DNA from: Lytechinus pictus
Lineage: Eukaryota
DNA length: 60,000 nt
NCBI RefSeq assembly: GCF_037042905.1
Contig: NC_087245.1
Span: 16,308,001-16,368,000, forward strand
Direction of reading: 5' to 3'
Every line of letters begins with the position of its first letter. The first letter of the stretch is position 1. Shown piece after piece: positions 12,687-52,940 of this stretch. The notes beneath the pieces are model-generated. The model did no database searches and was not told the DNA's origin. It worked only from the letters and a program-made list of their open reading frames with translations. Made by a program: the position numbers and the translations under genes.

Positions 12687-15479
12687 TTTGGTTGATATGT
12701 CAGGCGTCGACCTGTCGAAAAAAGAAGAATGTTATTAAAATTGATGCGTTTGGGTGAGCTTGGAGTGGATTAGAACCACAAGAAATATCCGGACTGTGGA
12801 CTTGGATACGGGAAGAGCAGAGAAGAGGACGGAGTGGTGAACCGAGATGGTTGGCTAGACACGGATGTTGGGATTCATCAGGCAATACCACAGACAGAAA
12901 GAGGGGAGGAGGGGAGGGAGGCTGGTAAAGATTGAAACCTAACGCGGGTTAAAGGTTATTAATACACACGCGTGTAAATGTACACGCACAATACTGACAC
13001 ACACACGCAGATCCAAGACACACTCTTATAGATGTACGGTAGTATCTTTGGTGGAATCTGAAACACGCAGGGAGAAGCAAGGAGTGTAAGAAAACATGGA
13101 AACCTCAATTCTGACCAATCATGAGTAAGGATGCATCCTTTACCACGAAGTGTCGCCCTTTGTCATTGGTTAACGAGTAGTTGCCCCCATGAAACAGTAA
13201 CCCAGCTGTGTGGGTGTTGAATGCTACCTGGAAGTTTCGAAAATGAATTGAATAAACGGTACTGTGTGTTGATAATTCCCTACCAATGGGCTTACCATAA
13301 TCAAACATTCTTGGAATAACAGTTTATCATTTCAAAAACAACAAAGTATCAATGACTCCATTTACGCCAGTACCAGGCAGTGGTAAACAACATCGAAGTA
13401 AAACAATATTTGATACCAAGATTTTGTGTAAAAATATAGTTTTAAAACAGAAATCAAATTAGAAAAAACAAAGAAACGAAAGAACTATTAGAGAATATGA
13501 TTAATAACTACAATCAAACTAAGCAGCAGATTTAAGCTACACTCCGTCCTCTACAATGACTGTCTTTTTAAGTTCTAGAACATATGGAGTAAACAGAGCG
13601 ATTGAGGAATAACGTAATTAGGAGTGAACTATCTACATTAAAGAAGTGAATATGAATAACATTGTTTAAATATTAAAACCTGTATGAAATCTTCTCGTAA
13701 TGCATAATTCATTTTATTCCAAGTTTGTAAGATAAGTACAAGTACAGATTTCAATTAGTAATACTACAAATTATTTAATTTTTTACTTCTCCCAACATGG
13801 TTTTGAATATTGCAAATCAGTTTATTCTTATTTTTTTTCTTCCTATAATAACCAGAGTTTTTAAAGTATATTTTGTTTTATTTTAAAAGCTCTATTTTGA
13901 GACATTCTATATTTTAAAATAGTATAGACATATAAATTGATGAATATATTTTTTTTCTTTCATACTCGATACTGCAGACATTATCTGAAAAAATAGGACA
14001 GATAAAATTTGCAAATGTATTTAAATGATTATTTTCATATCAAAGTTAATATATTTTGTATAAGAATCTGGAGAACTAGTTGTTAATCAGACAATAGTAG
14101 TAAGCAACTTGAGTGAATTTCCTCCATCGACTCTGTTTTATATTTCTGTTTAATGAATCTTTTCATCTTTCTGTCAATCTCGTGCTTTCCTCCATTCTTT
14201 TATTTGGATATTGTCACGTAATTCATATGGTAGAGTGATTAGCGAAGGTATTATTCCTTTGTCTATCACAGTTAGGAATATCCATCTCACTAAACTAATT
14301 AAAAGAACTCGTCACAGCGTGTAGTTTGATAATTGGTTCCCTTCTTTCATTTAGAATCTGTTTATGCTGCCAATAGTTCTTAAAGGAAATATTCGATTAC
14401 ATATTTGATGAGAATAGAGCACAAGTGATTGTAATTGTTTGTGATATTTTAAACATTTCTCTTCGTCGATTATACCGCGGTCATTGATGAAATAGGTCTG
14501 ACTAATCGATTAGATATTCAATCAAAATAATAAGCAAATACATTGCAATCCTAATGAATTATAAATTTGTATTTTTGGTCCAACCATTGATGGAAATTAG
14601 AGAACCTCTTTTCGCCAATTAAAATATCTAATTATTATCTTATCCTAATTTGTTTTTGTTACTGCACGGTACACCCTCTCTTTTATGGTTCCATTACTCA
14701 CATGAATGCTAAACCAATTATTTCCCTTTTTATGTAGATATTATAACTCTGTTTGGTCTCTTGATTTTGTGTGCGGTGTATTTTGTGTTGTGTGTGTGCG
14801 CGCGCGCGGGCGTGTGTGTGTGTGTGTTGTATGTAGGGGTACGCGCATTTGTGTTTCCTATTCCACTATTTCCATCGGCACTGTTACTCATTCCCATTCC
14901 AATAGTTTGCTATCCTTTGCTAGTTATTGAATAATTGACTTATATTAAAAAGTATGTTGATAATTCTTAAAATCGTTAAAAATTGACAAAATGAACTAAG
15001 CACGATTGGAACGACTGAAAGACATACAATTTTATTTTCCCTGCTGGACAGTTTATGAGGCCCAACCGGAGTATATTTTGATGCGATTACAGACGTTAGA
15101 TTGTTTTCACATATTTTCATTTATAAACCTTCTTCGGATTAATGGGCTTGGCTAGTTATACGTAGGTACGTTATCTACTCATTATCTTTTACGTATATAT
15201 ACAAATGAGAATTAAATGCTTGACTATAATCTCTTTAAGTCACTATCTCGCGTCTGTATACAAAAGCGACACACGCTACTCCGATCGGTTCATAAATATT
15301 TGGTCACGTGACTTATATCAAACCATAAGCTCTATTCCTCCTTTCGTTCTCACATCCTTTTTCATATATCTAATTTTTACGAAAAGTAATGATAATGCAA
15401 CTATGGAAGAAGTCGTAATTGTTGCAGAAGTAGAATAGTGGTGGTAGTAGAGCTATAGTAGAAGTATATGTTAGAAGAA

Positions 15480-15522
15480 TTAGTAATAGAATGAGTAGTA
15501 GTAGTAGAAGTAGTAGTAGTAT

Positions 15523-15557
<35 letters not shown>

Positions 15558-15586
15558 TAGTAGTAGTAGTAGTAGCAGCAGCAGCA
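15480..15586. repeat. (TAG)n/(CAG)n microsatellite
   Basis: Seen directly in the sequence. Confidence 0.9.
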
Positions 15587-16417
15587 GTGGCGTAACTACG
15601 GGGGGCACTTGCCCCCCCCCCCGCCCCCCTCAAAAAAAATTCGGCAGAGAAATAGGGAAAGAAAGAGAAGCATATTGGGAAAGGAATTATTTATTTCACA
15701 CTTTTATGAAACATGATTTGCTTAGGGCCAATGTGCTCACTCCTCCCAGTGCACGCATTGAAACAGAATACCTGTTCAAGGGTCATTAAATGGCGTTTAT
15801 AACATTACGTTTTCAAGTCAATATATCAAATATTTCCCCTGGCGCCTCGAGCTTTCATCATTTTAGTTTATAATATATGCATTTGTTTTCAATGTTAAAT
15901 GTCGATTTTTAAAGTCTGGACATCAATATTTTTTAGTTTTCGCTTCTCATTCGAATTACTTTATTAGTACGTATGTTCTTCATTATTTCCTACAAACAGT
16001 CCTTGAAATTACTCTCCTTTAAGTTCTGAATATATAAGATTTCAAGATCGTGATTCGCACTCGCAATATTTGGTTATTCGGTTATGTCTCCTGGTTGCCT
16101 TTTTTTCTGCTTTTAATTTTCAATCTGAAAGAAATTACGTTCGCGCTTCGCGCCCGAATTGTTTATTTGGCAAGATATGTGGCATCATTAGAAATATCTA
16201 GTACTATGACTAAACTATTTCTTGTTTGAATATCAAAACCATTTCAGCTCGTGCTTTTTGCTCGCATTATTTGATTATTGAGAACCATATCCTCTTCATG
16301 AATTCCTATAAAAGGTCAATCCTTAAATTGTCATCTTTTTAGGTCAGTGTACCTGCTCTTTGACTCACAAATTTTGTCCTAATGCCATGAACCACTGTGA
16401 ACCACGGTAGGCCACTG
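15585..16417. mobile_element. Degenerate non-autonomous DNA transposon with CAGTGGCGTA ends (hAT-like)
   Basis: CAGTGGCGTA / TAGGCCACTG termini, G/C runs, repeated degenerate TCGCGCTTCGCGC motifs inside. Confidence 0.5.
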
Positions 16418-16633
16418 GGAGCGGCAACTAAACATACATGTTTAACAATGACAGCAATACAACATAATTTAGAAATATTAGTAATATTTCGTTCAGGATT
16501 GCATGGTTTCCATTATTTTCCATCCTTAAATCATAACGAGTGAAACACATTGATCAAAATCAATCGAAATTTTCTGGGTGTCTATTTAATGAAATAAAAT
16601 CTCATTGGTAGTACTGAGAGTTTTTTGGGGAAA

Positions 16634-16742
16634 ATACTACTACTACTACTACTACTACTACTAATACTACTACTACTACTAATACTACTACTACCACTAC
16701 TACTACCACTACTACTACCACTACTACTACCACTACTACTAA

Positions 16743-16811
<69 letters not shown>

Positions 16812-17015
16812 CACTACTACCACTGTTACTACCACCACTACTACTACTGCTGCTACTACTACTACTACTACTACTAATACTACTACTACCACTACTACTA
16901 CTACCACTACTACTACTACCACCACTACTACCACTACTACTACTACTACTAATACTACTACTACTACCACTACTACTACCACTACTACTACCACTACTAC
17001 TACCACTACTACTAA

Positions 17016-17084
<69 letters not shown>

Positions 17085-17205
17085 CACTACTACCACTGTT
17101 ACTACCACCACAACTACTACTGCTGCTACTACTACTACTACTACTAATACTACTACTACCACTACTACCACTACTATCGCTACTACCACCACTACTACCA
17201 CTACT

Positions 17206-17250
<45 letters not shown>

Positions 17251-17296
17251 GCTGCTGCTACTACTACTTCTTCTTCTTCTTCTACTCCTACTACTA
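16634..17296. repeat. (CTA/CCA)n compound microsatellite
   Basis: About 660 bp of trinucleotide repeat. Confidence 0.97.
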
Positions 17297-20200
17297 CGTC
17301 TTGCTTTTCATGCCTTATCGAAGTTGCAAAATTATGGAGTTCTCATTCCACGACGTACGACGGATTCAAGAACATAGAAAATGTATTGTCAAATTAAGAA
17401 GTCTTTGTCGAAAGTTGGTGTATGAAATTAACAGTTTCATCCTGGACTTGGGGGAAAACAATTTTGCAAGTTTTCGTCTGCTCTGAAATTTAGGACGAAA
17501 CTGCTGTTCCGGTTAACTAGTTTTCGACAAAGGCCTCCCAGCTGTTCATTGTCATTTGACGGAAATTTTCATTACATGTATTATGTACCGTGTGTTTTAA
17601 ATTTCCCTAGTGGCAACATCTACATCACTGAATGATCCGTATACCTCGTTGCTGTTGGCAAAAACACGTTGCCCTTTGTCTTTACCAAAATTAATCTATT
17701 GATTTTATTTACAATATTAATTGACATGCTCATACACACTTTTCCGTACACTCACACACAATCGCGCGCACACACACTCTAACACCTTTGCCGACAAGAC
17801 ATTAGTCCGTTACACGTAGATTTACCTTAACTTGCGAATCTCAAACAGTGATTTTGATTAATTAATAGTGGGCTGTGGGTGTGTTGAACCAAATGCTCCA
17901 ATATCTGCAGATTTGATTGACCATTGCACGTTTGCAAACTCACGCCTTTCGTATGGAACCCTTTGGCCGTGTTGCTTAAATTCGCTGTCTTTGACACAAA
18001 TCCATTGAAAACTGTTGTCTGGTTGGCCCAGAAGCATTATTGTGACAGTGCTTATACAAGCTCCATGTTCATAAAACGGTGCTCAAAACGAGGAAATAAT
18101 GACGCGTGTTCAGATAAGCAACACGCAAAATAATAATCTTCTCAAGAAGATAAAAAAAAGTCAAAGAAGAAAACGGCATTGTATGCTGTTTCGACTCTCT
18201 TATACATAGAACACTAATGGATTCATAGTATTCTAATGTCTGACATCATTATAATTCATTATCATGATTTTTTATAACTATCATTATTAATATCACATCA
18301 TTATTATTGTTAGCATTATCATTATAAATATAATGATTATGATTAAAGTAACCATATATTAACTAATAGGTTCTGTTGTCAATACCATTACATTTTCTTT
18401 AAAATATTTGGATAAATAATAACCCGTTTTCATCCTACAATATTCCGAAAGGCCCACAACATAAGTTGATGAGAATCCCGGCGTGTTCTTTGCAAAATAT
18501 GTTTGCGTGGAACGCATATACTTGCTTTGATGAGAATTCTTCAGATGTTACCAATTATATCAGACGAATCCCTGCCCACCTCGTAGATTCCAGAGGGAAA
18601 TAAGCTTGTTTTTTATCCCATCATTTTTTTAACAGACTTTGTTTAAAAAAAATAAAACCTCTTCAGAAGACATGGTAACACTGTCCATTATCCACAGTTT
18701 TCATCTGTTATCTAAATTTGTCGTTTGTCTTTTTAATTAAAATTGTTCATTATCTTTATTTTTTTCTATTCTCCATGGCTAACTTCTGTGTACAAATGTC
18801 ATTGAGCCGTTGGGTTACGCATGATTTAAAGAATTCATTTAAAATCAATTATCACTTCTCAAACGCCAAAATAACAGTATAACGTCCCTTTTTATAAAGT
18901 GTGCTTACGACATGTTTGAACGCGGGAAGATACATTTAGCTGAGGATTATCAAATTACATTTTCGATAAACTTAAAGGAATTTACTATTCAAAACAAAAA
19001 ATAGAAATACAAATATTTTATCATTTCAAATAATTGAACTCACTGAACGGTAAAAAGGTCGGATAGATTATTATTACACCAAATATATAATTTCTCACAC
19101 TTCACAAATCCCCGCCAATTACGCTTATGACTTATGAAATAATACTTTTCGCCTTTATGTGCTCACTTATGCCCAATTTAACTAAACATTATACATTTTT
19201 TCGCAGAATTTATCCATAACTTAGGCGTAGCAACGCCCCTCATAAAATATTTCGTTACAATTCGTTTCGTTAAAAACTCACGGTATTTTGAAAGAGGGTG
19301 TTACTCTTTGGTGCGTTTAGAAATAGAAATAAGAAACGAAATACTGTTTCAGTTACAGGAACATTTACCCAAATATTTCATAACTTTAATTGCGATTATC
19401 CTTTTTTCAAATATGCCCATACAAATCCATTTATGAAACTCTTACATCCAAATTCATCACAGAAATCACTCAATTTAAATGAATTAGACACCTAACTTTC
19501 TACCAAACTTTTTTTCTGATATTAGCAAACGATCATTCCACATTCGGCACAACTTTGCTCACAATAATCAAATAGTAATATGAGAAGGTTCGCTTTCTTA
19601 CTAGGTTTACAAAATAATGAACGTGATATCTCAGTTGTATCGTTACTAGTACCGAAAATGTATCTTATACTAATATTATATTGTAGGATTCGATTTTATA
19701 CTCTTTAAATAATGACATTTGAGCAAATAAACATGTATGCTCCATCTCTCTCTTTTTTCCTTCTTTTTTTTTTTTTTTTTTTTGGGGGGGGAGGATAAAC
19801 ATTTAGGTGAAGACCAGTTGAACTTGCTAATACATCTTTTACATCCAATCAATGCACAGATATTTTGTTTACTCCACGTTACTCAATTTAAAAAAGCCAA
19901 GACCATATTCTTTCATAAGATATTTTGATTATTATTTTTTCCATTCAGTATTATTTTTTTACCCCTTTAGTCAAATTCCATTAACTCGATGAAAGACGGA
20001 ATATAATGCATCTTTTGCCTGAAAATCAGTGTAGATAATGAAATGAATAGTAAAAGATATATTTTCAATTATGTTATTGGTAATGTTAATATCAATTAGA
20101 GTTTACACCTCTTTATTGTTGTTCCTCGGAAGGCAAAACTACTAAGCATGCAGTAAACTTTTAATAATAATAAAAAAACTTATACGGTAAATCATCATGG

Positions 20201-26535: not shown

Positions 26536-28775
26536 TCACATATCTATGCTGTCTTGTCTATCTGTCGACGGGCTCATACCAGAACTAAAGCAAGTGTCAC
26601 TTATGTTCCCATTGGCTCCATTATCAGGAGGATGGCTTCCGTCAATCGTTCGCCTCATCTCTTTGGTAAATGAACAGTGATCATGTAACCGGTCTGAGGG
26701 CACTAAACAGTTTCCACCGTCCTCTGGTCTCGTATCATCGGGAATTACTTTCGACGAGTTTTCTGTCATAATTCCATCATCCTGAGGATCATTGCCGTTA
26801 TCCTCATTCAAACAGCTATTAGAATGATCTGTACCATTTCCTATTTTGTCTTCATGGCCGTCAATCGTACCGTTTAACATATGAGGTGCTCTCTGGTCAA
26901 TTGTATGCTCCGGAAAGATATCCGTATCAAATTGTAGATTATGTAGTCTCTCTGTACTATGCGGATAATGGTTTCCGTGTTCTTCTAAACTGGAATCGCT
27001 GAAATCTTCAGAGTCGATTGGAGAAGACAGTCTGTCGCCATCGGGAAACTGCTGAAATTTATCTTCTTGGTGGGCCTGCAGAGAATCGATAGATCCGGCA
27101 TGAGATGGAAAGTCACCGCATGCTTGCCCATTGTCATTGTGTCGAGGACGACGCAGAATGGTCCGACCTTGCAACCTGCCATGAATGTCATCATCGCTGG
27201 AAGATGAATCTGTTGAATGGTCACGGTTCCTTCTCCTAATCGATAGTGTCCTTAGAAGGGGATTCCGTGATGGTCTTGAATATCTAGGTGGATACAAACT
27301 ACCGAAACTGTGCCTCCGCTTTCCATCATAATTGTGAATATGTGTAATATCATCAACCGAGTCCAGTGATCTTGTGACAGGTAGGGGCCTCCGTGGCACC
27401 CTTTTCCTCGTCAACTCTTGGCTGAACAAACTTTGTTTTAGCAAATCACAGAGCGGTGTTCTTTTGACTTTCTGACCAGTGATTGCACTTCTTCCAAATA
27501 ACGCTTTCCGAAGACTGTTGTTATTATTGTTTACATTTTCCTCTTGACCATCCGCCACTTGTTCCACTTGAGGAGCTTGGGTAGTACTTTCATTTTCCAT
27601 CCCCTGATCACGAACAGTCACCGCTATATTTCCCACTAGTTCTGACATTACCTTCAGCGAATCCTCAAGACTACACTGTCCCCAGATGTTACCTTCACTT
27701 TGAATCCTTGATACGTTGATATTCACATCTGATCCATCGATATATTCCCCATTGCTGTCTGACATATGTAGAAGATCCCCCTTGCTAAACTTTTCTTTTC
27801 TACGATGAGATGGAGTACCCCTTCTAGAGCTCAAACTTCCTGCATCTGATTCAGAATCGCCGAATTTTTGAACCAGTGTGTCCAACTTTTGACGCAATTT
27901 TTCTTCCGTTTCATTCTCATTCTCATCATAAGAAGTCAGAGTCAGCAGATCATCGATTATGTCTAGACAGGAATCCACCTTTTCAGTAAGCTCATCGGCC
28001 TTCTCAAGATCTAACCTGACACGTTCTGCATTCTTCGAATGTATGGGAGACTTCTTTCTTCGACTAGATGGTCGTTTCTTTCTAGATGACTTACTTCTCG
28101 GGAAACCATTAACCTCGTCCAAATCAATGAACTCGGTGATGGCTTTGTCAGCTGATGGTAGTGAATGGCTGACTTTTGTTGGTGATTTAAGATGGTTGCG
28201 ACGAGAAGTCCTCCGCTTTGAACCTTTATGATGTTTGAGCTCGCTTATATTGTCTCCTTCAGGTGTGCCCAAATAGACTCTCTTATCAAATGGATCATCA
28301 TCCTCACCTCGTGGTCCTTCTGCTGAAACATAGGCCTCCGAGCTGTTCGTTTCACTGCGCCTACGGGTCACACCGTCATTGCTGGTCACACTTAGTCTAT
28401 CATCGTACATATTCTGCTGGAATTCTCTCGGATCGTACGTGGACAAAACTGAGTTTAGTATGTCATCCATATTTCTGTTGGTTATTTCACCAGAGTTTAG
28501 TTGATAACTTTGAGTCGTACCTGCAACAGTGACATCTTTCACCGTGGTATCAACCCCTTCTTCATCAGACTTGTTCCTGCTGACCTGGTCAAAGGTTTCG
28601 CTGTTTGATTGATTTAAATCATTATTTGGAACAACGCTCCCTTCATTGCCAATCTTTGATGGTACGACAGTTTCGGTTTCTCCGATAAACTGTCTGAATA
28701 TTTCAGGTTCTGTGATTACCAGCATCGGAGTTCTCTGTTTCACTTGTCGACTATCTTCTGCCCAACAAGTTGAAT
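26536..28775 (-). CDS. Probable terminal coding exon, Ser/Arg/Asp-rich low-complexity tail ending QDSIDM*
   Basis: ttttttttcag|AT acceptor (phase 1) in frame with the 735-aa ORF; TGA at 26538-26536. Confidence 0.85.
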
Positions 28776-29880: not shown

Positions 29881-30087
29881 CTTGCACTTCCAAAAGGCTG
29901 ACACAGAGCACGATTCCCTTGTCATTGGCGGCACTGCAGACATACAAACCAGCATCAGAGGGTATGATGTCCCGGATGTGAAGACAATGAATGCTACCTT
30001 CAACTCTGAGAGTGACGCGGTCATCACCATGGTTACTTGTGATATGGGTGTCATCTTTTGACCATTTCACTTCCGGGAGTGGCTCAC
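29881..30087 (-). CDS. Exon encoding the second half of I-set Ig domain 2 (GEPLPEVKWSKD...SDAGLYVCSAANDKG)
   Basis: Canonical I-set motifs; gtttaag| acceptor and G|gtagga donor; phase 1->1. Confidence 0.92.
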
Positions 30088-30560
30088 CTTAAACGAGATC
30101 AATGAATACAACTCTTATAGGCTGAATGAAAGAAATATGAAATAGACCTAGTTACATGTATCAAAGCATTAAATACGAAGACTTATTTTAATTGGACTGA
30201 ATACCAAATCTCACTGACATGGACATTCATTTGTAATCATAATAAGATGCATGTAGATACTAAATATAATAATAAAGGTCTATCACTGAATTACAGGTTT
30301 TGATATCTTGTATTTATTTGAATTTCTGTAATAATGTTACCACTCCTTTTTAGAATGTGATCGTTGAGTTTGAAATTAGAAGCACAATTACAGTAATTTT
30401 ATCGGTACACGATAGCAGTGGCATTACGCTACTCGGTATACTCTGCTTATATATCAAAACAGTTCTAGTGTACGTAATATCTTTAAATTTTGTATCCAGG
30501 TGAGCTCGTATAAACGCGATAGGTACGTTGGTGTTTCAGTGTTGCTGCTCGTGTATTTAC

Positions 30561-30709
30561 CTTCAACAGGGCAGAAGAATGTTGCCTTTGATCCCACAAG
30601 TGCTTGAACCTTCTGGCTGGGAAGTGACGCTGAAGGGATGTGCACTTGTTTCGCCAGACGTAAATCATCATCTCTGTCTGAAGTCTCTATTTCAGGTTGG
30701 CTACTTAAC
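30561..30709 (-). CDS. Exon encoding the linker and first half of I-set Ig domain 2 (...VGSKATFFCPVEG)
   Basis: G-x-x-A-x-F-x-C-x-V-x-G motif; aaatag| acceptor and G|gtaaat donor; phase 2->1. Confidence 0.88.
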
Positions 30710-31079
30710 CTATTTGAATTATGAAAGACGCCATTAGAATGACGTTTATCTTGTCAAGGAACATATGGTAATATGGATATTATCTACAATGTTATTTGTA
30801 CTTTTTTTGGGGTTTTCTATTTGCCATCTTGTCAATCGCCCAATTTTCTTATTTATCTCATTTTCTAAACACTTGCCTTTCTTTCGTATCATGCATCTAT
30901 TTTGTTTCAAATGTATCATACAGGTATATTTCGCCATTTTTTCATTACAGCTGCAGTTTTAAAAATGTAACTTGGATAAATCGATTCATAATTTCTTCAA
31001 AATTACTAATTTAAGGTTCTCAGAAATTGGACATTAAAACGTATTACAGTTGGTTTTCAAATAAGGTCTGTGTACTCAC

Positions 31080-31122
31080 CCATCAACGTCAGCACTCTTA
31101 GACTGTTGAACTGGCCCAGAAT
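31080..31122 (-). CDS. Linker micro-exon (DSGPVQQSKSADVDG)
   Basis: actttccaag| acceptor, GG|gtgagt donor; phase 1->2 bridges its neighbours exactly. Confidence 0.75.
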
Positions 31123-31431: not shown

Positions 31432-31668
31432 CTCGTTCCTCGACATCGAGTTGAGCGGAAGAGAATGCCTGACCTTGGGGGTTGATTGCTACACATGCGT
31501 ATTCGCCTTTGTCCTCGAACTTGACCTCGACAATGTCCAAGATAGACACCAATGCGCATGCGTCATCATTGTTGTCTTCGCCGTAGTCTGTGATTTTCAG
31601 ACGGTTGTTCCTCTCCGGTCTGATGACCTTACCGGAAGCAAACCAGCTGATGTCAGGTCGAGGTGAGC
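31432..31668 (-). CDS. Exon encoding the second half of I-set Ig domain 1 (GSPRPDISWF...EDKGEYACVAINPQG)
   Basis: G-x-P-x-P-x-I-x-W and D-x-G-x-Y-x-C-x-A-x-N-x-x-G motifs; canonical splice sites; phase 1->1. Confidence 0.92.
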
Positions 31669-31779
31669 CTGAAGTAAGAAACAATGATCTCACTTGTCAT
31701 GTCCGATTAGTCAAGATACTTTGGTCCTTTCATCGGCCTCATCTTTCATACTTCATTACTGAACCTCTTTCAATTCTAA

Positions 31780-31939
31780 TACATCGGTCATATTTGCTGT
31801 ACGGCGGCCGTACGGCGAGTCGAAAACAGCCGTTTTAACATTTTTTGTATCAGCTACATAGGTGATTTGAATAATAATGAATGAAACGGCTGTTTCCGAC
31901 TTGCCGTATGGCCGCCGTAGAGCAAATGTGACCGAGGTA
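31780..31939. mobile_element. PIF/Harbinger-type MITE
   Basis: About 55-bp GC-rich TIRs (TACATCGGTCATATTTGCT.../...AGCAAATGTGACCGAGGTA), TAA on both sides. Confidence 0.85.
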
Positions 31940-32495
31940 TAATTCGGGCTTTACTAAGGAGAACAAGGGCTTTAATGAAAATGGATTTAAGAATAGTGAA
32001 TTCCTATAATATATTAATACTGCAGGAAAAATTTTCCACACTTAGGTTGCACCACGATGGTATATTCACAGAGGCAGTGCTATATTCTGAGAATGTCACT
32101 AAAACCAAGAACAAGGCTTTCAGTATCGTTCTTACGCGGTGCGTGCACAAGAGTATTTGGTATCGTTGGTTACCTTTCTTCTCTACACCATAACGTTTCT
32201 TGTATTTCTATTGACTTGACTCTTTCTCAATCAAAAAGGCTCTCTTAATTATATAAATATCGAATATATTGCTTTTTTGAAATGCTTTTCCGAAAAAACA
32301 CGATTTCAGAAAACACTGGTATACAAAACCCGACAGCTTCACTGTCAGTGATACTCTAGACATCTTGTTGAATTTAGTAGATCTAGACAGTCAGTGCTCT
32401 TTAATAATTAATCTTAAAATGGGAGGAATTATGATGTGTTTATAGCAATCATCATCAATAATTCATCGATGCCTGTCAAATGGGATAATACTCAC

Positions 32496-32644
32496 CCGTC
32501 ATACAGCAAACAAAGCGAGCATGGTCCCCATGGAAACATGATGCGTTATTTGGTCGAATCAGAAATCGAGGAGAGTGATGTTGAGTAGCAGTCTTCATCA
32601 GTATCGGTTCTTCCTGGACTAGCGTCCTCTCCAGTTCGTCTATT
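32496..32644 (-). CDS. Exon encoding the first half of I-set Ig domain 1 (SPRFLIRP...ARFVCCMTG)
   Basis: P-x-F start and F-x-C-x-x-x-G motif of I-set Ig; ttaacag| acceptor and G|gtgagt donor; phase 2->1. Confidence 0.88.
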
Positions 32645-33134: not shown

Positions 33135-33384
33135 CACTGTAAAAAATATTGGGTAAATTGTTTACCACCACGAGGGTAATGTGTCCAACCAATGTGGGAC
33201 AGTATTTTACCCAATGCGGGAAGCATATTGTCCTGTAAGGTTAAAAAATAAGCAGCAGTTACTTTAGAATGGGCAAAAATTTTCATCACACTGGATAAAT
33301 AAAAATGCCCAAAAGAAATGCGCAATGTTGATTGGATACATCATTACCCCCATGGAGCACTTTTACCCAATTTTTTTTAGAGTG
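33135..33384. mobile_element. EnSpm/CACT-ended MITE (degenerate)
   Basis: CACTGTAAAAAATATTGGGTAAA / TTTACCCAATTTTTTTTAGAGTG inverted ends; TSD not preserved. Confidence 0.65.
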
Positions 33385-33470: not shown

Positions 33471-33534
33471 CGGTCGGAGAAATCTGAGTATGCAGTCTCG
33501 TACTCGGTGTCATCAGATACTTGTTCAAGATAAC
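33471..33534 (-). CDS. Large Ig/IQ protein exon (GYLEQVSDDTEYETAYSDFSDR)
   Basis: ctacag| acceptor, CG|gtaaga donor, phase 1->2. Confidence 0.75.
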
Positions 33535-36196: not shown

Positions 36197-36535
36197 CATG
36201 AAAATGTTTTCCATTGACGTAGCTCGTCGATGTTGATTGCAAACGACTGGTGTCGACATCATCTTCTCGGTCTCGGGTTCGTCGGCTGACTGGAACGGTG
36301 GTCAATGACGTCGGAGAACATGGCATAGGGCTGTTGCTTATGTTAACATGTCCATTCCTTTCTGTAGTTGCCATAGTAGTCGTAATGAGTCTTTCGATGT
36401 CAACTTCATCCTGATTTTTCAGCAACGACGCCGTGGATGACGAGGGAAGTATTGGAAGTTGATTGACATCGACGTAGTGAACGGATGCTGAGCTCCTAAA
36501 ATCGTGGTTGAGGGTGAACTTATCACCTTTGGCAC
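36197..36535 (-). CDS. Large Ig/IQ protein exon (GAKGDKFTLNH...KHFH)
   Basis: ttttacatgtag| acceptor, G|gtgaga donor, 339 nt open, phase 1->1. Confidence 0.8.
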
Positions 36536-37357: not shown

Positions 37358-38159
37358 CACTGCAAAAACTCCAGTGTTGATTTAACACCAGCTCGGAATA
37401 TATATATGTCCACACCAGAGAAGTATTGAAACAACAACAGTTTGGACAAACTTGTTTTTATAAGAAAAAGAAAAATCAGACAAGTTGATAGGTGAAAGTT
37501 TGAACAATATTGGACAAACAACAAGAAAGTTATGAATTTTTAAAAGTTGTAAATATTGGTAATCACTATACCCATGGAGACTTCAAATTGGCCGCATATG
37601 GGGTGTCATAGTGATGTAAGGCAAGGACTACTCTTCCATGTATTCCAATACATATTATGGCTAAAATGTTATTTTTTCCAAAGGTTTTATTTCAAGTTAT
37701 ATTTTTCTTTCATGAGGACATAAAACAATATACTACCTGGATTACATTTAGATTACTGCCCCAGGGGAATGGGTACTTAGGAGAAAACCACAAATCCCTG
37801 ATAATAAAGTACATGGCCTATGGGAAAGTTGTCCTTGCCCCTTGTCATAATTTACTTACCCAGTTGCCAATTTGAAATCTACATACTATTAGTGATCTCA
37901 ATTTTAAAGCAGCTATAACTTTCTTATTGCTTGTTCGATTTCTTTCAAACTTTCACCATTCTGTTTAAATTATTTTTATCCTTCCCAACACAACATTTTA
38001 TGGCCAAGGCTGGATTCCCCTTTTTAATACTAATTGGTGTTGTATAAACACCTATCTGGTGTTAGACCAAAAGGAAACTGATGTTGTTTAAAACTTCTCT
38101 GGTGTGGACATATATAGATTTTGGGCTGGTGTTATATCAACACCAGACTTTTTGCAGTG
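37358..38159. mobile_element. EnSpm-type MITE (same family as 49803-50044) interrupted by a nested insertion
   Basis: CACTGCAAAAA...TTTTTGCAGTG ends, 2-bp TSD CG, arms match the 49803 copy. Confidence 0.85.
37447..38027. mobile_element. Kolobok-like (TTAA-targeting) element, left-truncated, nested in a MITE
   Basis: Ends GGATTCCCCTTTTTAA; internal imperfect inverted arms resembling 56412-56998. Confidence 0.65.
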
Positions 38160-38276: not shown

Positions 38277-39439
38277 GATCAAACACCAAACCCTCAAACC
38301 AATCCTGACATGAACTCAGCACAATTCATTCAGACAAAAATATACGCACGTCCGAATAACTCTCTTCAAATTGGGCTTATTTCCCCCGACATATCATGTG
38401 TAGCCTATCAGGTAAACCGCAATAGTACGTATTCCAATCGGATAATCGGATAAAGTCGATTTAGCGGTTGGTAACCCGCAGACTAGATAGTTATCGCTGA
38501 ATGCAGCGCATGAAACAGTAAATAGATCGAAAAGCAGCACAAATCCTATTTCTGTCTACCGTTATGATTTTAGTCGATAATATATAATTTCAACGCTAGG
38601 GTGAACTTTGCGTTCACACCTGTCAACCTGTAACAGGTCACAACTCAACACATTTGGATGAGAACCTGCCAGCTGACGCTCTAGTTGGAACCAATTCGCA
38701 TACGCTCACAACAAATACAATAATGTCAATAAATGTTGTGGAATAATTCGTTTTCCCATATATTTCTACTGTCTATTGAATCCCGCTTCTTTTTCATTGG
38801 ACAATGATTATATCGCATTTTGACGCCTCGTTAATGTCCAGGAAATGACTCGAAATTTAGGGTCAATAGATGGGCCAAGCTATCTAGCGGTTAATATGGC
38901 AACGGAAGATGTAGGGTATATAGCGTCTTCAGAGAAGAGGATTAGAGGGATTGGATGTTTCTTGTCATGGTCAGCGAATGTTTATCTTCAAGGAAATTAG
39001 CACTTTTCCGTTCAGACTTAACGGAGATATACGGTCAGATGGCGAGACCTCAAGTGCAACGAGATAGCTTGAAGAGCACGTCCCCAGAAGAATCCCCCAA
39101 AACACCTCTCCATTTAAAATGAATCTACAGCATCCAAACTACATCTGTTGATGATTTCGTCATTCATTACACTTACTAAATCACTACCAATAAAGGATCG
39201 TCCTATCATCATGCCTATAAAGCCCTGTTTCATTAATTCAATCGACTTATCATTTCCATCACATTGACGTCAGAAATGTAAGAATTTAAGATAAAAGAAA
39301 ATGAATTAAAAGGATTACTAATTTCTTCAAAGATTTTCATTGATCGCTTATTCTATATCTGTTACATCACAGTAATTTTTTAAATGATTAAAATGGGTGT
39401 TATTTTGATTACCACAATTATAGTAGGAGTCGTAACGTT

Positions 39440-39479
39440 ATAGTAGTAGTAGTAGTAGTAGGAGGAGGAGGAGGAGGAG

Positions 39480-39545
<66 letters not shown>

Positions 39546-39568
39546 AAATAGTAGTAGTAGTAGTAGTG

Positions 39569-39614
<46 letters not shown>

Positions 39615-39667
39615 CAGGACTAGTAATAGTATAGGAAAAAGTAGTAGTATAGAAGAAGAAGAAGAAG
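39440..39667. repeat. (TAG)n/(GGA)n/(GAA)n microsatellite
   Basis: Seen directly in the sequence. Confidence 0.95.
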
Positions 39668-39835: not shown

Positions 39836-40028
39836 CTTCAACTAAAGTGGGCTGGACGGGGCAAGCACGAGTTGCACTAATGGCGTCATTGAGGTCTGTG
39901 ACTCCACCGCCATCATCGCAAGGTATTCTGGGAGAGAAAAGCTCAGATGCCGCCGAGACAGTCTTTTGGGAGTCGTGATCATCATCGCTCGGATGTGAGC
40001 CATTTTCTGCTATCCTTTGCGATTCCGT
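39836..40028 (-). CDS. Large Ig/IQ protein exon (TESQRIAENG...PTLVE)
   Basis: attctgtag| acceptor, open frame, G|gtaagt donor; phase 0->1. Confidence 0.8.
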
Positions 40029-41040: not shown

Positions 41041-44000
41041 CTTATCACAGAATGTTCCATGTGGCTCGCCTATTTTGTTATCTTTTGATACTTCGTCATT
41101 AACCTTTGCCAGTTCTCCTCCACCGTATCTATTAGAAGACTGCATCATTCGTTCATCATCGTCAGTGTTGCCATGGCAATCATCAGATACCATCGATGCC
41201 TTGGTTTCCTTTCTTCCCTTTTCACCGCGATCTAAAAACGAGGTTGATATCATCGGCATTGTTTGAAGCTTCGAACCAATTGAAGTGGCAGCAGCCGACT
41301 TCAGACGTGTGAGAGATTTCTTAGACTCGCCCTTGCTGGGAGTCTCACCCGTCTTCGAAGGAGTTCTTTTTCTTTTGAATATGTTCTGAATTTTCCTTGT
41401 CACCTCTTTTACTTTAGTATCATTCAGGTCTATGTCAATCTCAGTGGTCTGTTTTGATGATGTCGAGACGAGATTACCTGTGTTTGAATTAAAGATTTCA
41501 GGTCGTGCTTTTGCCGTATCATTGTTTGTACTTTGAAATATTTTCTCAAGTTCTTCGCATTTCATTGAAGATGTTGGTGCTTCCGATCTTTCAGTTCTAT
41601 TATAGACTTTGGTATCAAGCTCATAATGATTTAACCCAACACTAGCGGATTCCACTTTTCCATTGTCATTTCCAATCAAGGTCCCATTCTTTTTCTTCGA
41701 GGTAGCACTTTCATTCATATTCCGGCATGTCAAATTATTAGTATTAGTTTCCACACTCTTTCCAGGTACATCTTTCTTAGTAGAGGTAGTTTGTGTCTTA
41801 TTTTTGCTAGTCTTCTTTTTCCAAAAGGCACTTTGAAGTTTGAAAACGGTTTTCCGAACATCGGGGTCTGATAAATCAATATCTACGTCCACATCTGTCC
41901 CAGACTTGTTGGTTTTATTCGTATCCGATGGCGCATCTGTTAGGTCAACAGGGAAATTTGCATCATTTGATTCTGGTAAATTTTGATTATTCAGCTTCTT
42001 CAATTCTAAATCCGTTTCATTTATTAGCACTATATCCTGTAGTTCCTCATTGGTTGGAAACCTCGTAGGAGACGGTAGAGATTTAAGTTTTTCAGTTACT
42101 TCCTTTACTTCTGCATCTAGGAGATCGATGTCTATGTCATCGCCCAAATTTGCTTCTTTAATCGATGAAGCTCGTTTCATCGGGTGCTTCTTTTCAAGCG
42201 GTGATCGAAAATTGGCGTTAGCATCTGCACGAGTTATGTTTTCCCTTTCCGGTGAGGTTGGCTTAGGATTACTTTCTAGGTGTCCTGAAAGCTTTTCATT
42301 GACAATAACCACACCTTTGTATGTTTGGTAGCCTACAGTAGCAGGTGTGTTTCCAAGAGTAACGTCTATTGGCTCTAAACTATTAGTTGATGATATATTT
42401 CCAGTTGGGTCTTTAAGTTGCTGTTCGTTTGACAAGATGTTTTTATCCAGTTCATCATCAGATATTACGACATTCACTGTAGTGTCGGCAAATAAAATCG
42501 GAGGGCAATCAGTTCTATCAGAATCAGAAACTTTTTGCATTTCTTTGGTAATAGGAGTATCTGGAGGTGATGCGAAATGGTTTAAAGAATTTGCTTTATT
42601 TGCTTGTACTTTTTTGCATGCTTTGTCCTCTACCGATCCTTTGCTTCTCTTGCTGTGCAACTTCTTACGACGAAAGACTTGCTGAATCATCTTCGATGCA
42701 TCTTGAACTTTAGGATCTTTAAGATCAATATCAGGTTCCAGGACCGTACCGGGACCAGACTCTTGCAGGTTTTCTTCTGAGGTATCCATTGGTTGCTGGT
42801 CATTTCCCGTGATACATCTCAGTTTCTTATCTAGATCTTCTCCTTCAGATGTTTCTTTGGAGAGTTCCATACTCGGATTCACCACCTCGCTTGGAGACGA
42901 AGGACCAAGTGGCGCACGCGTGTTGTCTGCTACTTCTTTGATGAAAACTTCTTCTGAAAGAGCAATGCCCGGGTTTCCATTTTCAAATGGTTCTAATTCT
43001 CTGTCATTTTCTTCAACAGATTGAACTGAGAGTCTATTATCTGTTAAAGATTGTTCTTGCTGTTCTATTAATGAGGTGGCGTAAGGCTGATATTGTGAAA
43101 CTGATTTTTGTCGTGAAAGTTTCTTGCAAACCCTCTCTTTTGCTTTTTCTTTAGTCTTGAGCGAATCAGGAGGAATGTTATCACCTCTTACATTTTTGTG
43201 AGCTTGAGAATTGGCGAAATCGATTGGAAGTGAATGGTGTCTGATCATCTGAACCCCTCTGTTCTCTGTGGGAGTGTCAACCTGAAATGGATTATGATTT
43301 TCCAAAGACGCTGAACTACAAATGCCTAAAGATCTATAGGAAACCGAATCTGATTCGGCTCGCATTCTCTGCATTGATCTGAACTTTTTTGACCCATGGA
43401 GTTCCCTTCTCTTCCGAAAGGCCAATTGCATTCTTTTCGTTGCTTCTAATACATCTGGATCTGATAAATCAATATCGATGGGTTCTACAATAGATTCTTG
43501 ATTTCCCATTTTCTCGTCCTTTATGGTCCTGCAATTTTCTTTTGCACCTTGATTACCATTCGGGGTATTGGGATGTACTTCACTATCATCTTCATCAACA
43601 CGTTTCTTAACAATAGTTATGTTTTCATAATGCACGAATTTGAGCTGTCCAAGGGCCATCGGCCTTGCAGGGATAGAAGGTCCATTTCCAGTCAGAGAAA
43701 CGAGACCAATGTTATTAATTTGCGTATCAGGATGATGGTTATTGTCTTGTGGCAAACTGTACTCTGTTTTCTTTGAAGATGTAATTAGTTTCTGAAGACC
43801 TTCAAGAATTTGCCTTCTGTTTGAAGAAGATTGATCTAGAGAAGAAGATTCTGTCTTTAAAGAGGTTCTTATTTTCACATCAGATTCTTCTCTATCTACA
43901 CCCGAATCGGACGTGTAATTTGTTTGTTCTTTTTCAATCTGTGACTTGGCCTGTTCCTGGCACTGTCCTTTGTTGGAATGCAAACGATTCGTAGCATCTG

Positions 44001-45395
44001 ATTCATCAAGTGAACTATGGTTAGCATCGGTGTCCTGACAACCACTGTCGCTACTTGAATTGCCAGGTTGTCTTAACCGCCCACGGATCTTCATTCTCAT
44101 ATTCTCGAGCAGTTGACTTCTTTTATCTTCAGACCTCAGGGCCTTGTCAAAGGCCTCACTTTGAGAGGGATATGGATAGTCCCAGTATTCCGACCTCATT
44201 GCGTGAGTATCCATCATATCCTGGGCATAGTCACTTTGCTCATGGAGTCCTGGTATCTGCTCTTCAAGTCGCAAAGTGATCAACTCGTTCTTTTGGATTT
44301 GCACATCATCAAGTTCCTCCTTTTCTGCACTTGTCAATAAACGATGGAATGTTGGCAAGTTCTTAAAGTATTCCTTTCCTTCCACGTATCCGCTGAAATC
44401 CTCTTCGTATTGTGGTTCGAATCCAAATGATCCATCACTCCCTTGCGAAAGTCGTTTATATCCCTCCTTCTGGGGAACTGTTTTAACATCTGCAGTAGCA
44501 CCAGATATGTTCTCTACTCCCTCTTCTCCAGGTGAAGAAGTTTCTATTTTTCCATCAGAATGACTATCTAACACTATTTCACTATCTACCTCCTCTTCAA
44601 AAATTGTTTCATAGGCAGGAGAATTGCATTTTTCTACAGACGCTGTAATCGAATCTAGAACCCACAACGGATTGATCTCTGATCCAGATTCAAGGGAATC
44701 CGTACTGGTTTCCAACAATTCACCTTGATCTTTCGTGGCTGCCTCCTTTGGTTGATTTTGTTGTTCTTTCTCATCTTCTATAAACTTTTTGAGCTCACTG
44801 ATTGGACTTAATTCACTGCCAGAATTTTCTTCCCTGCTAGCTTCCATCACTTTTTCAGTTTCCAAAGAGCACGATTTGGAGTCTACAAATGATTCAGTCG
44901 AAAAATTTCCAAGAGTAGATTGACCGTTTGGGGAAACACTATCAATTTCAAATTGCACCCTTCCTTGTCGTCGTAGAGGTGAGCAATGTCTTGTTGTGTC
45001 TATATCAAGCGCCCTCTGTTTCCTCAGTGATTTCTCTTCAGATCCACCTCCATTCAAGGATGTCCTCTTCGATTTAGGATCCTCTGGTTCATGTCGTTTG
45101 AAGTCAATTTCACCATTTTCTTTTCCACTATGATAAAAAACACACCGATTGCACTCCTCCCCACTTGCTTTTAAAGCTCCCCTTGCGAATTTAGATCCTT
45201 GCGACACAGTCTTCGAGCCAGTTGGAATGTGTTCCACAGAGTTGCGAAACTTGACTTCCTTAGGATTCGGTAGTGAAGGTGAAATGGCAAGAAAAGCCTC
45301 TGAGCGATATCGAGGCTGTTTTAAGAGAGGTATCTTCATAGAAACAGTGGCATCGTGTTTGACTTGTACCGCAGCGATACTGTTTGCCGGAAGGT
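41041..45395 (-). CDS. Large Ig/IQ protein, giant exon (4355 nt; low complexity, five acidic-IQ motifs)
   Basis: 1471-aa ORF; acceptor ttcttgacag|AC (phase 1); donor AAG|gtaggt (phase 0). Confidence 0.9.
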
Positions 45396-45854: not shown

Positions 45855-45933
45855 CTTTTCGTCGATGGTTCAACGACACCTCGATGGTTACAGGTGATGT
45901 TTTGGGTGGCAAAACCCGTTGATCTGACTCCAT
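45855..45933 (-). CDS. Large Ig/IQ protein, coding exon 1 (MESDQRVLPPKTSPVTIEVSLNHRRK)
   Basis: Acceptor ttcttctatag, exon starts 45950; ATG in a strong ACCATGG context; donor AAAG|gtaata, phase 1, matching the giant exon. Confidence 0.75.
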
Positions 45934-48041: not shown

Positions 48042-49802
48042 ATACCATCTAAAAAGGGGGAAGCGTATCCACAAAGCTTTGCAGTTTGACAAACTCAGTT
48101 TGTTCATTCTTTCAAATCAATCAAGAACCACCCCCATAAAAACAACATACTAGAGTTTGCGATATTGAGCCCAATGTGATTTATTTCATTCAGATTTTCG
48201 ACAGTCTTCCTCCGAATTTCAATTGTATCAAATATTCCAAAAGATGGATATTCATTTCTCTCCCTGTAACAAAAAGACATCATTTTCCCCTATGATTTCA
48301 TTGCAGGGATGAGGCCATACGAGCTCCTGTTATATACTGCACGACTCATTCTCTATACGTAAAATATTTCGTGTGTCGATTAATAGAAATGTAGCATAAC
48401 GGGTGAGTATAGGCTACCCCTATCTATCTTCCCAGTTCCACACCCTCATCCCGGCCCTTGGGTTATTCGCACCCTCGCCTTGCCCTCGGTCCCGATTACA
48501 ACTTGCGTGAATTAAATTTCCTGTAAAATTACAAATTACAATCTATTGCACTGCTATGCCGGACAATAATCAATTAGAAGGAAACCATAAAAGATTAAAT
48601 CGATTATCTATCTAGCCAAGAACTTGACGTGTGTCTGTCTTGAAGTTAAGTCTCTATAATATAATGGCCATACGCAAAAAATGTAAACTTTTACGAAAAA
48701 AAAATCGAAAGCGAAAGAGCGAAGCCCGTCATTGTTGCGCTTTTGCAATTGTATGGTGAACTTGAAGTAATTCGTTCTTTGATGATTTTCGTGGAAATTT
48801 TTATCAAAAAAATGTGAGTTTTCAAAATTTCTGAGTACGGGCATAAGCTTTGTCAATATAGATATAAAGTCATTGGATACATTGAATATATTGTCTTCTT
48901 TACTGTTCAGTTCCTACCGCAATGCGTGCAATCGTCATGCGAATATGGCACAGTTTTATAGATCTCAGTCACAACCCTCGGAGCTAGTTTGATTTCTTAT
49001 TTCCTAACACGCCTAGCTACATGCGTCTCATCGTCTTAACATGTGTTTATGAACTAGACCCTGCCCTAGGCTTAGCGTCTACGTTCAAAATAAACCCCGC
49101 CTGGTCGACGATGAAATTGTATTTCGTCAATATTAAGAGGGCAACTATTTACAGTTGTACACCTGCTTTTGCTAATTTTGGTTTTATATACTGCTTCGTT
49201 ATATATTAAAGCGGCTTATTCATTTTATCGATAGATGTACGCTGAAATGTTGTTGATATCAGACAGATTAGTATGATTCTATTACTGTAGTAAAATTACT
49301 GCTAATGATATTCAATATATTTTAAGTTTCTCGATTTGTTCAAAGTTGATTTTTGTTTTGTTTTCTCCTATGGTTATTGTAAAAAAAGAAACATATATTA
49401 CAGTAGACTAAAAACGTACATATATTATTTAATCAGTATTAGTAATAAGTTAGGCCTGGAAGAATGTTCTTTCTCCTGCTTTTTCTTTACCACAAGTTAT
49501 GTAGTTATCAATTGTCAATACTGATTGATGTAGGAATGTTATCTAAATGTGCGTCGGGCGAAATTATTATGTGAGAACAAACCATGTCAAAAATGAATTT
49601 CTGTAAGCTCGAAAAACATGTTTTCTCCAGAGCAGATTGGGAGTAGGTACAAATGAAATAAAGGTTCCAAATGTTACCCCAGTTTTTCGCAGTAATTGAT
49701 TAGGTTAATGGAAACCGTCCTCTCCAGTCTACAACGTTTAGAAAGACGTGGAAGTATAGTAACTAAACATGCTAAAAGATGCGATATGACTCCTTGTACT
49801 AA

Positions 49803-50044
49803 CACTGCAAAAACCTTGGTGTTGATTTAACACCAGTCCGGAATCTATATATGTCCACACCAGAGAAGTGTTAAACAACACCAGTTTGGTTTTGGTCTAA
49901 CACCAGATAGGTGTTTATACTACACCAATTAGTATTTAAACAGCATCAGTTTGATTCCAAACTGGTGTTGTTTCAATACTTCTCTGGTGTGGACATATGT
50001 AGATTCCGGACTGGTGTTAAATCAACACCGGGGTTTTTGCAGTG
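49803..50044. mobile_element. Intact EnSpm-type MITE
   Basis: About 85-bp TIRs with CACTGCAAAAAC ends, 2-bp TSD AA, internal ACACCA repeats. Confidence 0.9.
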
Positions 50045-50652
50045 AAGGAGTTATTATTTTTTCTACACTTGGCTCGATGGAAATACGGTCTCAAGGTGAC
50101 CCCATTTCAGGTGAGGTGAAGGGGAGTCTCATGTTTAATGATATTACCACGTATTAGGTACAGGTGTCTAACCGGGGCATTTATTAGGGCTTACCTTGAA
50201 CGAGGTCTACCTAGAGGATGTCATACTTATAGATATACAGCGGGTAGTGTCGGGTATAACTTTTAATGATTTTCTTATGTATCTCATTCTCCTTTGATTT
50301 CAATAATTTTAAAGAGAAGAACATGAACTGTGATGACAAGAAATTCAAAGTGACAACTAAAGTAGGCTTACGATAAAGCATGGTGTACTTGCCTTCAATT
50401 CAAATATAAAGAAAAAGACTATTCTTGAGTCTATTGACTTATACATGAATAGAATTCATAATCTTCATTATGACATTGTTTGCTGTATGAAGTTTTAATC
50501 ATTTTCGTTCATTTTTCTTCTATTTTCAGCAGTCTGTTGCCTTGTTATTTTCTTACTGGTTTCATTGTAAAATTCAAAGATACATATTCGATATGCATGT
50601 ATATTAAATAATCCATCAATTTTAAACAGTATATCCGATTAAATGAAATACT

Positions 50653-52039: not shown

Positions 52040-52940
52040 TCCATAAACTTTCAAAGTTATGATGGCACTTCAACAATTACCCCAACATGGCCTAAGTTTA
52101 TTGACCTTAACTGACCTTTGACTTGGTTTTGTGACCTGAAACTCACAGAGGATGTTCAATGATGCTTGATTACTCTTATGTCCAAGTTTTATGAACTAGA
52201 TCCATAAACTTTCAGAGTTAGGATGGTAATTTAACATATACCCCCAACATGGCCTAAGTTTATTGACCTTAAATGACCATTGACCATGGTCATGTGACCT
52301 GAAACTCAGGCAGGATGTTCACTAATACTTGATTAACCTTATGTCCAAGTTTCATGGACTAGATCCATAAATTTTCAAAGTTATGATAGTAATTCAATAA
52401 ATACCCCCAACTTGACCAAAGTTCATTGACCCTAAATGACCTTTGACCTTGGTCACGTGACCTGAAACTCAGGCAGGATGTTCACTAATACTTGATTAAC
52501 CTTATGTCCAAGTTTCATGGACTAGATCCATAAATTTTCAAAGTTATGATAGTAATTCAACAAATACCCCCAACTTGACCAAAGTTCATTGACCCTAAAT
52601 GACCTTTGACCTTGGTCACGTGACCTGAAACTCGAGCAGGATGTTCACTAATACTTGATTAACCTTATGCCCAAGTTTCATGAACTAGGTCCATATACTT
52701 TCTAAGTTATGATGTCATTTCAAAAACTTAACCTTCGGTTAAGATTTTGAAAATAATTTTCCCAACATGGTCTAAGTTCATTGACCCTAAATGACCTTTG
52801 ACCTTGGTCATGTGACCTGAAACTCAGGCAAGATGTTCAGTAATACTTGATTAACCTTATGTCCAAGTTTCATGAACTAGGTCCATATACTTTCTAAGTT
52901 ATGATGTCATTTCAAAAACTTAACCTTAGGTTAAGATTTG
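52040..52940. repeat. About 163-bp tandem array (about 5 copies) inside the HINE-like element
   Basis: TCCATA unit starts at 52040, 52201, 52364, 52527, 52690, 52882; TGACCTTTGACCT motifs. Confidence 0.9.

Follow-up and report, generated by a model that had tools for sequence, protein, structure and literature searches.

Structure of the host gene and its protein

The window analysed here, a stretch of 60,000 nucleotides from Lytechinus pictus, carries on its minus strand the gene LOC129264114, which consists of 11 exons from 45933 to 26536, all with GT-AG boundaries (Table 1). The translation of this exon model corresponds to RefSeq XP_063953257.1, 2,684 amino acids long, with 0 mismatches. 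Exon 2 harbours the five repeats that are the subject of this study, and its giant size, proposed in the preliminary description, is borne out by its splice sites (AG|45395 and 41041|GT), by the RefSeq model and by contigs that end exactly at both limits with unaligned overhangs of 179 letters (at 45395) and 252 letters (at 41041). Another contig links 36194-36533 with 27325-28775 through 846 intervening letters, which equal the 849 nt of exons 5-10 given a 3-letter overshoot at the end of exon 4. The contigs stem from 4 of 16 sequencing runs, whose RNA label is a guess; no run is recorded as RNA among the 16 entries, and contig depth is unfit for ranking expression. As no contig among those listed covers parts of the giant exon as well as of the Ig exons, the link between the two rests on the RefSeq model and the overhang.

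Table 1. Coding exons, repeats and conserved island of LOC129264114 (positions in the window)
Feature	Position	Strand	Basis or characteristics
Coding exon 1	45855..45933	-	ATG at 45933
Giant coding exon 2, 4,355 nt	41041..45395	-	Splice sites, RefSeq, contig ends
Non-IQ conserved island, aa 326-482 of P0001	44011..44481	-	Best-kept part in Diadema and P0129
R1, whole acidic-IQ repeat	43405..43479	-	Translation; best match to PEP-19 determinants among R1-R5
R2, whole repeat	42661..42735	-	Pro at 30, Lys at 38; conserved basic/Ser tail after it
R3, leader and first helix half only	42061..42135	-	No IQ, Phe or basic tail
R4, whole repeat	41812..41886	-	D31, D33, P37, D38 present; Trp at 51
R5, whole repeat	41365..41439	-	Thr at 37, Lys at 38 and 51
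Coding exon 3	39836..40028	-	Gene model, RefSeq
Coding exon 4	36197..36535	-	Contigs, gene model, RefSeq
Coding exon 5	33471..33534	-	Gene model, RefSeq
Exons 6 (32644-32496) and 7 (31668-31432)	31432..32644	-	First I-set Ig domain
Exons 8 (31122-31080), 9 (30709-30561) and 10 (30087-29881)	29881..31122	-	Linker and second I-set Ig domain
Last coding exon 11, ~746 aa	26536..28775	-	No Pfam domain; stop at 26536

In the L. pictus and S. purpuratus proteins (P0171 and P0173), the only domains identified by Pfam are two of the I-set type, and Fn3, kinase and GEF domains are absent from both; the term 'giant Ig protein' used in the preliminary description therefore overstates a protein of this length with two such domains. 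These Ig domains show a generic 24-28% identity to those of titin, hemicentin and obscurin-like proteins. A search with the Ig region returned 17 matches of 792 candidates, comprising only generic Ig proteins and the L. pictus record, with no non-echinoid orthologue. Relatives of 2,597-5,000 amino acids were sought among 4,316 candidates and none was found, a result that is uninformative since cluster members of 2,684 and 2,704 amino acids exist. The giant exon is low in hydrophobic residues and, judged from its composition and its lack of Pfam domains, is probably disordered for the most part, while a single-sequence fold of 44760-43770 was uninformative (pTM 0.17, mean pLDDT 55.5). The last exon contains a block, at window ~28000-27600 on the minus strand (near aa 2190-2320 of P0171), that shares ~90% identity with S. 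purpuratus and gives a weak coiled-coil-like Pfam match below the cut-off. No paper on this gene was found in the open-licence literature.

Downstream of the gene lies a coding unit of ~127 amino acids with a single Ig domain (12711-12680 and 9816-9443, minus strand), 86% identical to S. purpuratus, which the older S. purpuratus model P0174 fuses to the last exon of the host gene. A three-Ig isoform including the 9.8-kb Ig exon was considered and rejected, as the strong donor at 26579 closes the frame and only the poor donor at 26569 opens it; because the strong donor gives no open fused frame in the window, the single-Ig unit is probably a separate small gene. Introns contain high-copy interspersed repeats at 37358-38146, 31776-31942 and 33178-33371, where contig depth is very high and many contig ends are loose. 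The first of these repeats is bounded by inverted ends, as a small non-autonomous transposon would be, and has a relative near 49800-50050. A diverged tandem repeat with a period of ~150 nt, read by eye, lies upstream of the gene at window ~52050-52930, and long trinucleotide microsatellites at 16600-17400, 39430-39660 and 15400-15600 give rise to spurious open frames.

Acidic-IQ repeats of the giant exon

All five repeats (R1 to R5) fall within one stop-to-stop frame of 1,483 codons (45456-41005, minus strand), and their translations match those of the preliminary description in every case, at the positions given there. They are separated by 80-250 amino acids, and R2-R5 share only 26-38% identity with R1. 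The short pattern DIDL.D..V is matched by all five repeats and the longer pattern DIDL.D..V......[ILM]Q..F.[RK][KR] by four. When the protein was shuffled 20,000 times, the short pattern appeared at a rate of 0.00025 per shuffle, never more than once in any, and the long pattern did not appear; both patterns were derived from the repeats themselves, so that these figures are evidence of repetition and not of function. The predicted helices of the repeats are in the top 4% of the giant exon by hydrophobic moment. R3, R4 and R5 have [RK][RK]x[ST] sites next to them, and R5 ends in K[KR]x[KR].

The urchin repeats align without gaps to PEP-19 residues 30-54 (numbering of PMC5122967) and likewise to neurogranin residues 13-49 as printed in 10.1101/2024.03.21.586151. 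According to PMC5122967, the plug that PEP-19 inserts between calmodulin helices E and F consists of Phe30, Ile32 and Met34, rate modulation depends on Asp31, Asp33 and Pro37, and the helix 38-58 makes contacts through Thr39, Ala42, Ala43, Ala45, Ile46, Gln47, Phe50 and Phe53; A42D, F50G, R51K, K56A and K57A each reduced the activity of the peptide. At the plug positions, the repeats have hydrophobic residues at 32 and 34 in five of five cases and at 30 in four, R2 having Pro. D31 and D33 are present in all five L. pictus repeats, with Asn33 in R1 of S. purpuratus. Pro37 and an acidic residue at 38 occur together in R1 and R4, Pro alone in R2, the acid alone in R3, and neither in R5. The dipeptide [ILM]Q at 46-47 and Phe50, ungapped from the leader, are found in every repeat except R3. 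Arg51 is confined to R1 and R2, R4 having Trp and R5 Lys; no repeat has a hydrophobic residue at 53 or a basic one at 56, and Lys57 occurs in R4 only. R1 combines I30, D31, I32, D33, L34, P37, D38, A42, MQ, F50 and R51, and is the only repeat in which D31, D33, P37, acidic 38 and R51 are found together. Equal function of all five copies is thus not upheld, as R3 has no IQ half, P37 is missing from R3 and R5, R2 and R5 have Lys at 38, and R4 has Trp at 51.

In a Pfam scan of the giant exon and of R1-R5, IQ matched none of the five repeats, and Pfam IQ (PF00612, IQxxxRGxxxR) was absent from the scans of P0171, P0173 and P0159. A profile of the repeats searched against the PDB reached neither PEP-19 nor neurogranin at E 10 and gave one chance match. 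In the ESM Atlas, the best matches to the R1 region scored 0.76-0.77 and included IQ and IQCJ-SCHIP1 clusters, all of them below 0.9 and of use as leads only.

Distribution of the acidic-IQ family

A profile of the five repeats, a search that the preliminary description had suggested, was run against 1.84 billion protein representatives and matched 391 clusters at the cut-off of E 0.001 or better, 152 of them at 1e-10. Family counts were made on the best 150 of the 391 matches, from which three urchin orthologues and P0027 (no motif) were removed, leaving 146; the acidic-IQ unit is present in 142 of these 146 listed proteins, in five or more copies in 52 of them, with 745 copies in total. The family consensus is IDIDLxDPEVxxAAxKIQAxF[KR]GxxxRK. 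Among 30 family proteins looked up for source and domains, array carriers include twitchin-like proteins of Ptychodera and Saccoglossus, a Saccoglossus MLCK-like Ig protein, and proteins of scallop, midge, Nematostella, Priapulus, Lineus, Gigantopelta and the protist Cantina, with a RIIa (Sp17-like) domain in those of scallop, midge and Nematostella. Pfam IQ was found in 16 of the 17 non-orthologous family proteins scanned.

Among the hemichordate proteins P0074, P0045 and P0083, twitchin-like kinases close with six to seven canonical acidic-IQ repeats that follow their final Ig domain, and an MLCK-like Ig protein has three such repeats between its Ig domains; the array in a giant Ig protein envisaged in the preliminary description is better matched by these proteins than by the urchin gene. 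Up to ~20 acidic-IQ copies are found in P0003, P0006, P0009, P0014, P0028 and P0046, of which several begin with a RIIa (Sp17-like) domain and some end with a GST-like one. As judged from these sequences, acidic-IQ arrays are common within large proteins, true giant Ig proteins included. The rarity implied by the preliminary description does not agree with 391 clusters or with the 2016 proposal, in PMC5122967, that the acidic-IQ motif might be used as a module within larger proteins. A search of the open-licence literature on acidic-IQ arrays, including igloo/PEP-19 arrays of invertebrates, Sp17 repeats, twitchin IQ tails and urchin IQ proteins, found no paper on the arrays described here.

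Two of two family members tried match PEP-19 (2n77_B, PDB) at E 1e-4 and 1.2e-3. Since the repeats miss PEP-19 directly while family members match it, the link from the urchin repeats to PEP-19 passes through one intermediate step. With a profile made from 646 non-echinoid repeats, the four whole urchin repeats score 19-28 bits, and no further site in the six frames of the window comes near them. The urchin leaders rank at the 5th-37th percentile of 646 distinct family copies and the IQ halves below all 646, a contrast that is partly built in, as it was the urchin profile that retrieved the family, and the family's own matrix that scored it. Gly52, basic 56 and hydrophobic 53, found in no whole repeat of the window, are present in 88%, 90% and 78% of the 745 listed family copies, and Arg at 51 in only 43% of the copies listed. 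Shortened IQ halves are not unique to the urchin, as 68 copies in 20 family proteins lack both Gly52 and Arg56. The assignment to a PEP-19/neurogranin-type module made in the preliminary description thus stands as regards the gapless register and the family link to PEP-19, and fails as regards Pfam IQ and a direct match in the PDB; putative kinship with the PEP-19/neurogranin acidic-IQ module is supported by the register together with the wide family.

Conservation among sea urchins

Identity was counted mainly against the S. purpuratus orthologue XP_030830402.1, to which the repeats are identical at 109 of 125 positions, their flanks at 322 of 608 and the remaining exon at 723 of 1227. Only 128 of 100,000 random draws of five windows reach the identity of the repeats. 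Against L. variegatus, the repeats are identical at 124/125 positions and the flanks at 537/608; against the Logan protein P0170, the figures are 106/125 and 328/608. The repeats are therefore conserved islands relative to their flanks, a point that the preliminary description had proposed to check, yet other parts of the exon are equally conserved. Identity to S. purpuratus is 22/25 for R1, 25/25 for R2, 22/25 for R4 and 24/25 for R5, and the 0.88 of R1 and R4 is also reached by 14% of the 25-residue windows of the exon. The islands at aa 246-295 and 326-482, within the exon, equal the repeats in conservation, the former corresponding to 44721-44572 on the minus strand. For these islands, Pfam, the fold and the ESM Atlas (0.75-0.77 for the non-IQ island, below 0.9 and of use as leads only) gave no clue to a family.

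Copy number is labile between urchin lineages. In Diadema two copies are whole, the counterparts of R3 and R4, R2 keeps its basic/Ser tail but has lost its leader, and R1 and R5 are unrecognisable; in the distant urchin protein P0129 a single copy is whole, and R3 consists of its leader only. The truncation of R3 is common to L. pictus, S. purpuratus and P0129, R3 being whole in Diadema, and R4 aligns with a whole repeat in every orthologue compared. The L. variegatus protein XP_041485787.1 (P0010) stops just past R5, its frame shifted near window ~41340 on the minus strand; read by eye, this end looks like a one-base assembly difference that splits the gene.

Predicted complex with calmodulin

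R1 (38 amino acids) was co-folded with an invertebrate-type calmodulin from the metagenome locus L013 as a stand-in for urchin calmodulin, and the complex received weak support, 0.38 against 0.02 for the best control. This prediction, of the kind called for in the preliminary description, covered R1 of the five repeats. The pLDDT of the partner was 60-61, and at least 85% of contacts agreed between runs. Of 78 solved pairs 51 attain the mark for such predictions, as do 2 of 108 mismatched ones; only 5 of the 78 solved pairs, but all 4 false passes of 180, score no higher than 0.60, and the benchmark pairs include no peptides or disordered chains. As calmodulin-IQ complexes have already been solved, the pass of R1 may reflect memory and show likeness only. 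Viral contigs scanned for a calmodulin motif gave no match.

Possible function of the array

With slightly more confidence than doubt, we regard the repeats, on the strength of these comparisons, as a diverged echinoid acidic-IQ array that may tether calmodulin locally on a scaffold. By analogy with the PEP-19 structure (PMC5122967), the whole repeats would fold on binding the C-lobe of calcium-free calmodulin: leader positions 30, 32 and 34 would plug between helices E and F of that lobe, V39 to F50 would form an amphipathic helix in its semi-open groove, and the basic tail would lie against the acidic surface of calmodulin. The calcium-free form would be the main partner, and canonical copies would probably bind it more tightly than the urchin repeats do. 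Up to four calmodulins could be held near wherever the Ig domains anchor, and a rise in calcium would release or re-seat them; cytoskeletal anchoring is a guess from the I-set domains, no signal peptide having been noticed. Faster calcium exchange might be expected at R1 and perhaps R4 only, an effect that we consider rather doubtful. The bulk calmodulin reservoir of the preliminary description is unlikely, because such a role would need high abundance and four sites on 2,684 residues would make a costly buffer. Against tethering stand the missing Pfam IQ match, IQ halves below the family, labile copy number and equally conserved non-IQ windows; the lowering of PEP-19 activity by R51K (PMC5122967) counts against R4 (Trp) and R5 (Lys).

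Other explanations share part of this evidence. That the repeats are decaying relics free of present selection would agree with IQ halves diverged from the family and with copies gained and lost between lineages, but the excess of identity over the flanks in both S. purpuratus and L. variegatus largely refutes it, and we hold it to be very improbable. It is less improbable, though still unlikely, that the repeats dock another EF-hand protein, their IQ half having drifted to fit a partner such as a troponin-C-like protein, a myosin light chain, a centrin or an echinoid calmodulin-like protein, for instance of the Spec family. IQ halves outside the canonical range and strongly conserved non-canonical residues (R2 and R5 against S. 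purpuratus) favour such a partner, and the complex prediction is blind to which family member binds. Amphioxus CaVP, which binds a target with an IQ motif and two Ig domains, provides a precedent, although a literature search for it found no paper naming CaVP. Retention of the leader residues that contact calmodulin in PEP-19 speaks against another partner. About equally improbable is a change of task, in which repeats descended from acidic-IQ units would now serve as amphipathic or polybasic motifs for membrane, cytoskeleton or nuclear-import binding, or as kinase sites. The tail kept without its leader in Diadema R2, the leader without IQ of R3 in three lineages, and the basic motifs beside R3, R4 and R5 and at the end of R5 would all fit such a change of task; short basic motifs are, however, common by chance in a Lys-rich exon, and the leader, I/L/M-Q and Phe are kept in exact register in four copies, in Diadema and in P0129, which calmodulin binding alone needs.

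The PEP-19 model does not explain a leader-only R3 kept in three lineages. It is conceivable, if improbable, that the leader and first helix half form a docking unit of their own, so that the array would tune calcium exchange on a calmodulin or calmodulin-like lobe held by a neighbouring or separate site; at the same low likelihood, selection in these urchin proteins would have kept the leader, with the IQ half left to drift or, in R3, to be lost. Were this so, the PEP-19 mechanism would split into a separable tuner and anchor, and the family of 391 clusters (twitchin tails, Sp17-like proteins, protists) would be an overlooked layer of kinetic control over calmodulin. How a protein can alter the speed of calcium uptake and release by calmodulin has been worked out for PEP-19 and neurogranin, and the urchin gene, and more so the wide family, offers natural test cases with graded changes at P37, acid 38 and R51 and a leader-only copy. 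The array is of value as a lead open to test; it is hardly surprising, the module being known and such arrays common.

Comparison with known systems

The urchin repeats resemble PEP-19/PCP4 (PDB 2N77; PMC5122967) in their hydrophobic-acidic leader, Pro37 (R1, R2 and R4), IQ-type dipeptide and Phe50, all in gapless register, and also in having no Gly at 52 and a basic tail. Unlike PEP-19, a free regulator of 62 amino acids with one site, the urchin protein has 2,684 amino acids and four to five sites; its repeats are without the Phe53 and Lys56 that PEP-19 uses, Ala42-Ala43 is mostly replaced, and R2 and R5 have fewer acids.

With neurogranin, the repeats share an acidic leader at the spacing of residues 13-49. 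Neurogranin, neuromodulin and igloo all have the canonical IQxxxRGxxxR, whereas the urchin repeats have neither the Gly nor the last Arg. Several acidic-IQ motifs are present in igloo. These three proteins are included in the calpacitin group (PMC9618489), igloo being cited in PMC2139842 as well. Calpacitins (PEP-19, neurogranin, GAP-43 and igloo) are small free proteins with calmodulin binding as their sole activity, unlike the urchin host with its large size and two Ig domains.

Like the urchin array, those of other invertebrates and of protists contain multiple copies in long low-complexity regions, some of them beside Ig domains; unlike the urchin copies, theirs are near-identical within a protein, often close-set, and match Pfam IQ. 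An IQ motif and I-set Ig domains are combined in one protein in amphioxus CaVPT, and obscurin and CaVPT have one IQ motif each. Obscurin (PMC2196875) likewise resembles the urchin protein in joining the IQ motif to I-set Ig domains. Titin, twitchin and obscurin possess many tandem Ig or Fn3 domains and usually a kinase or GEF domain, unlike the urchin protein with only two I-set domains. The urchin repeats would work like a PEP-19-type module but fall outside the canonical IQ family, the calpacitins and the titin class.
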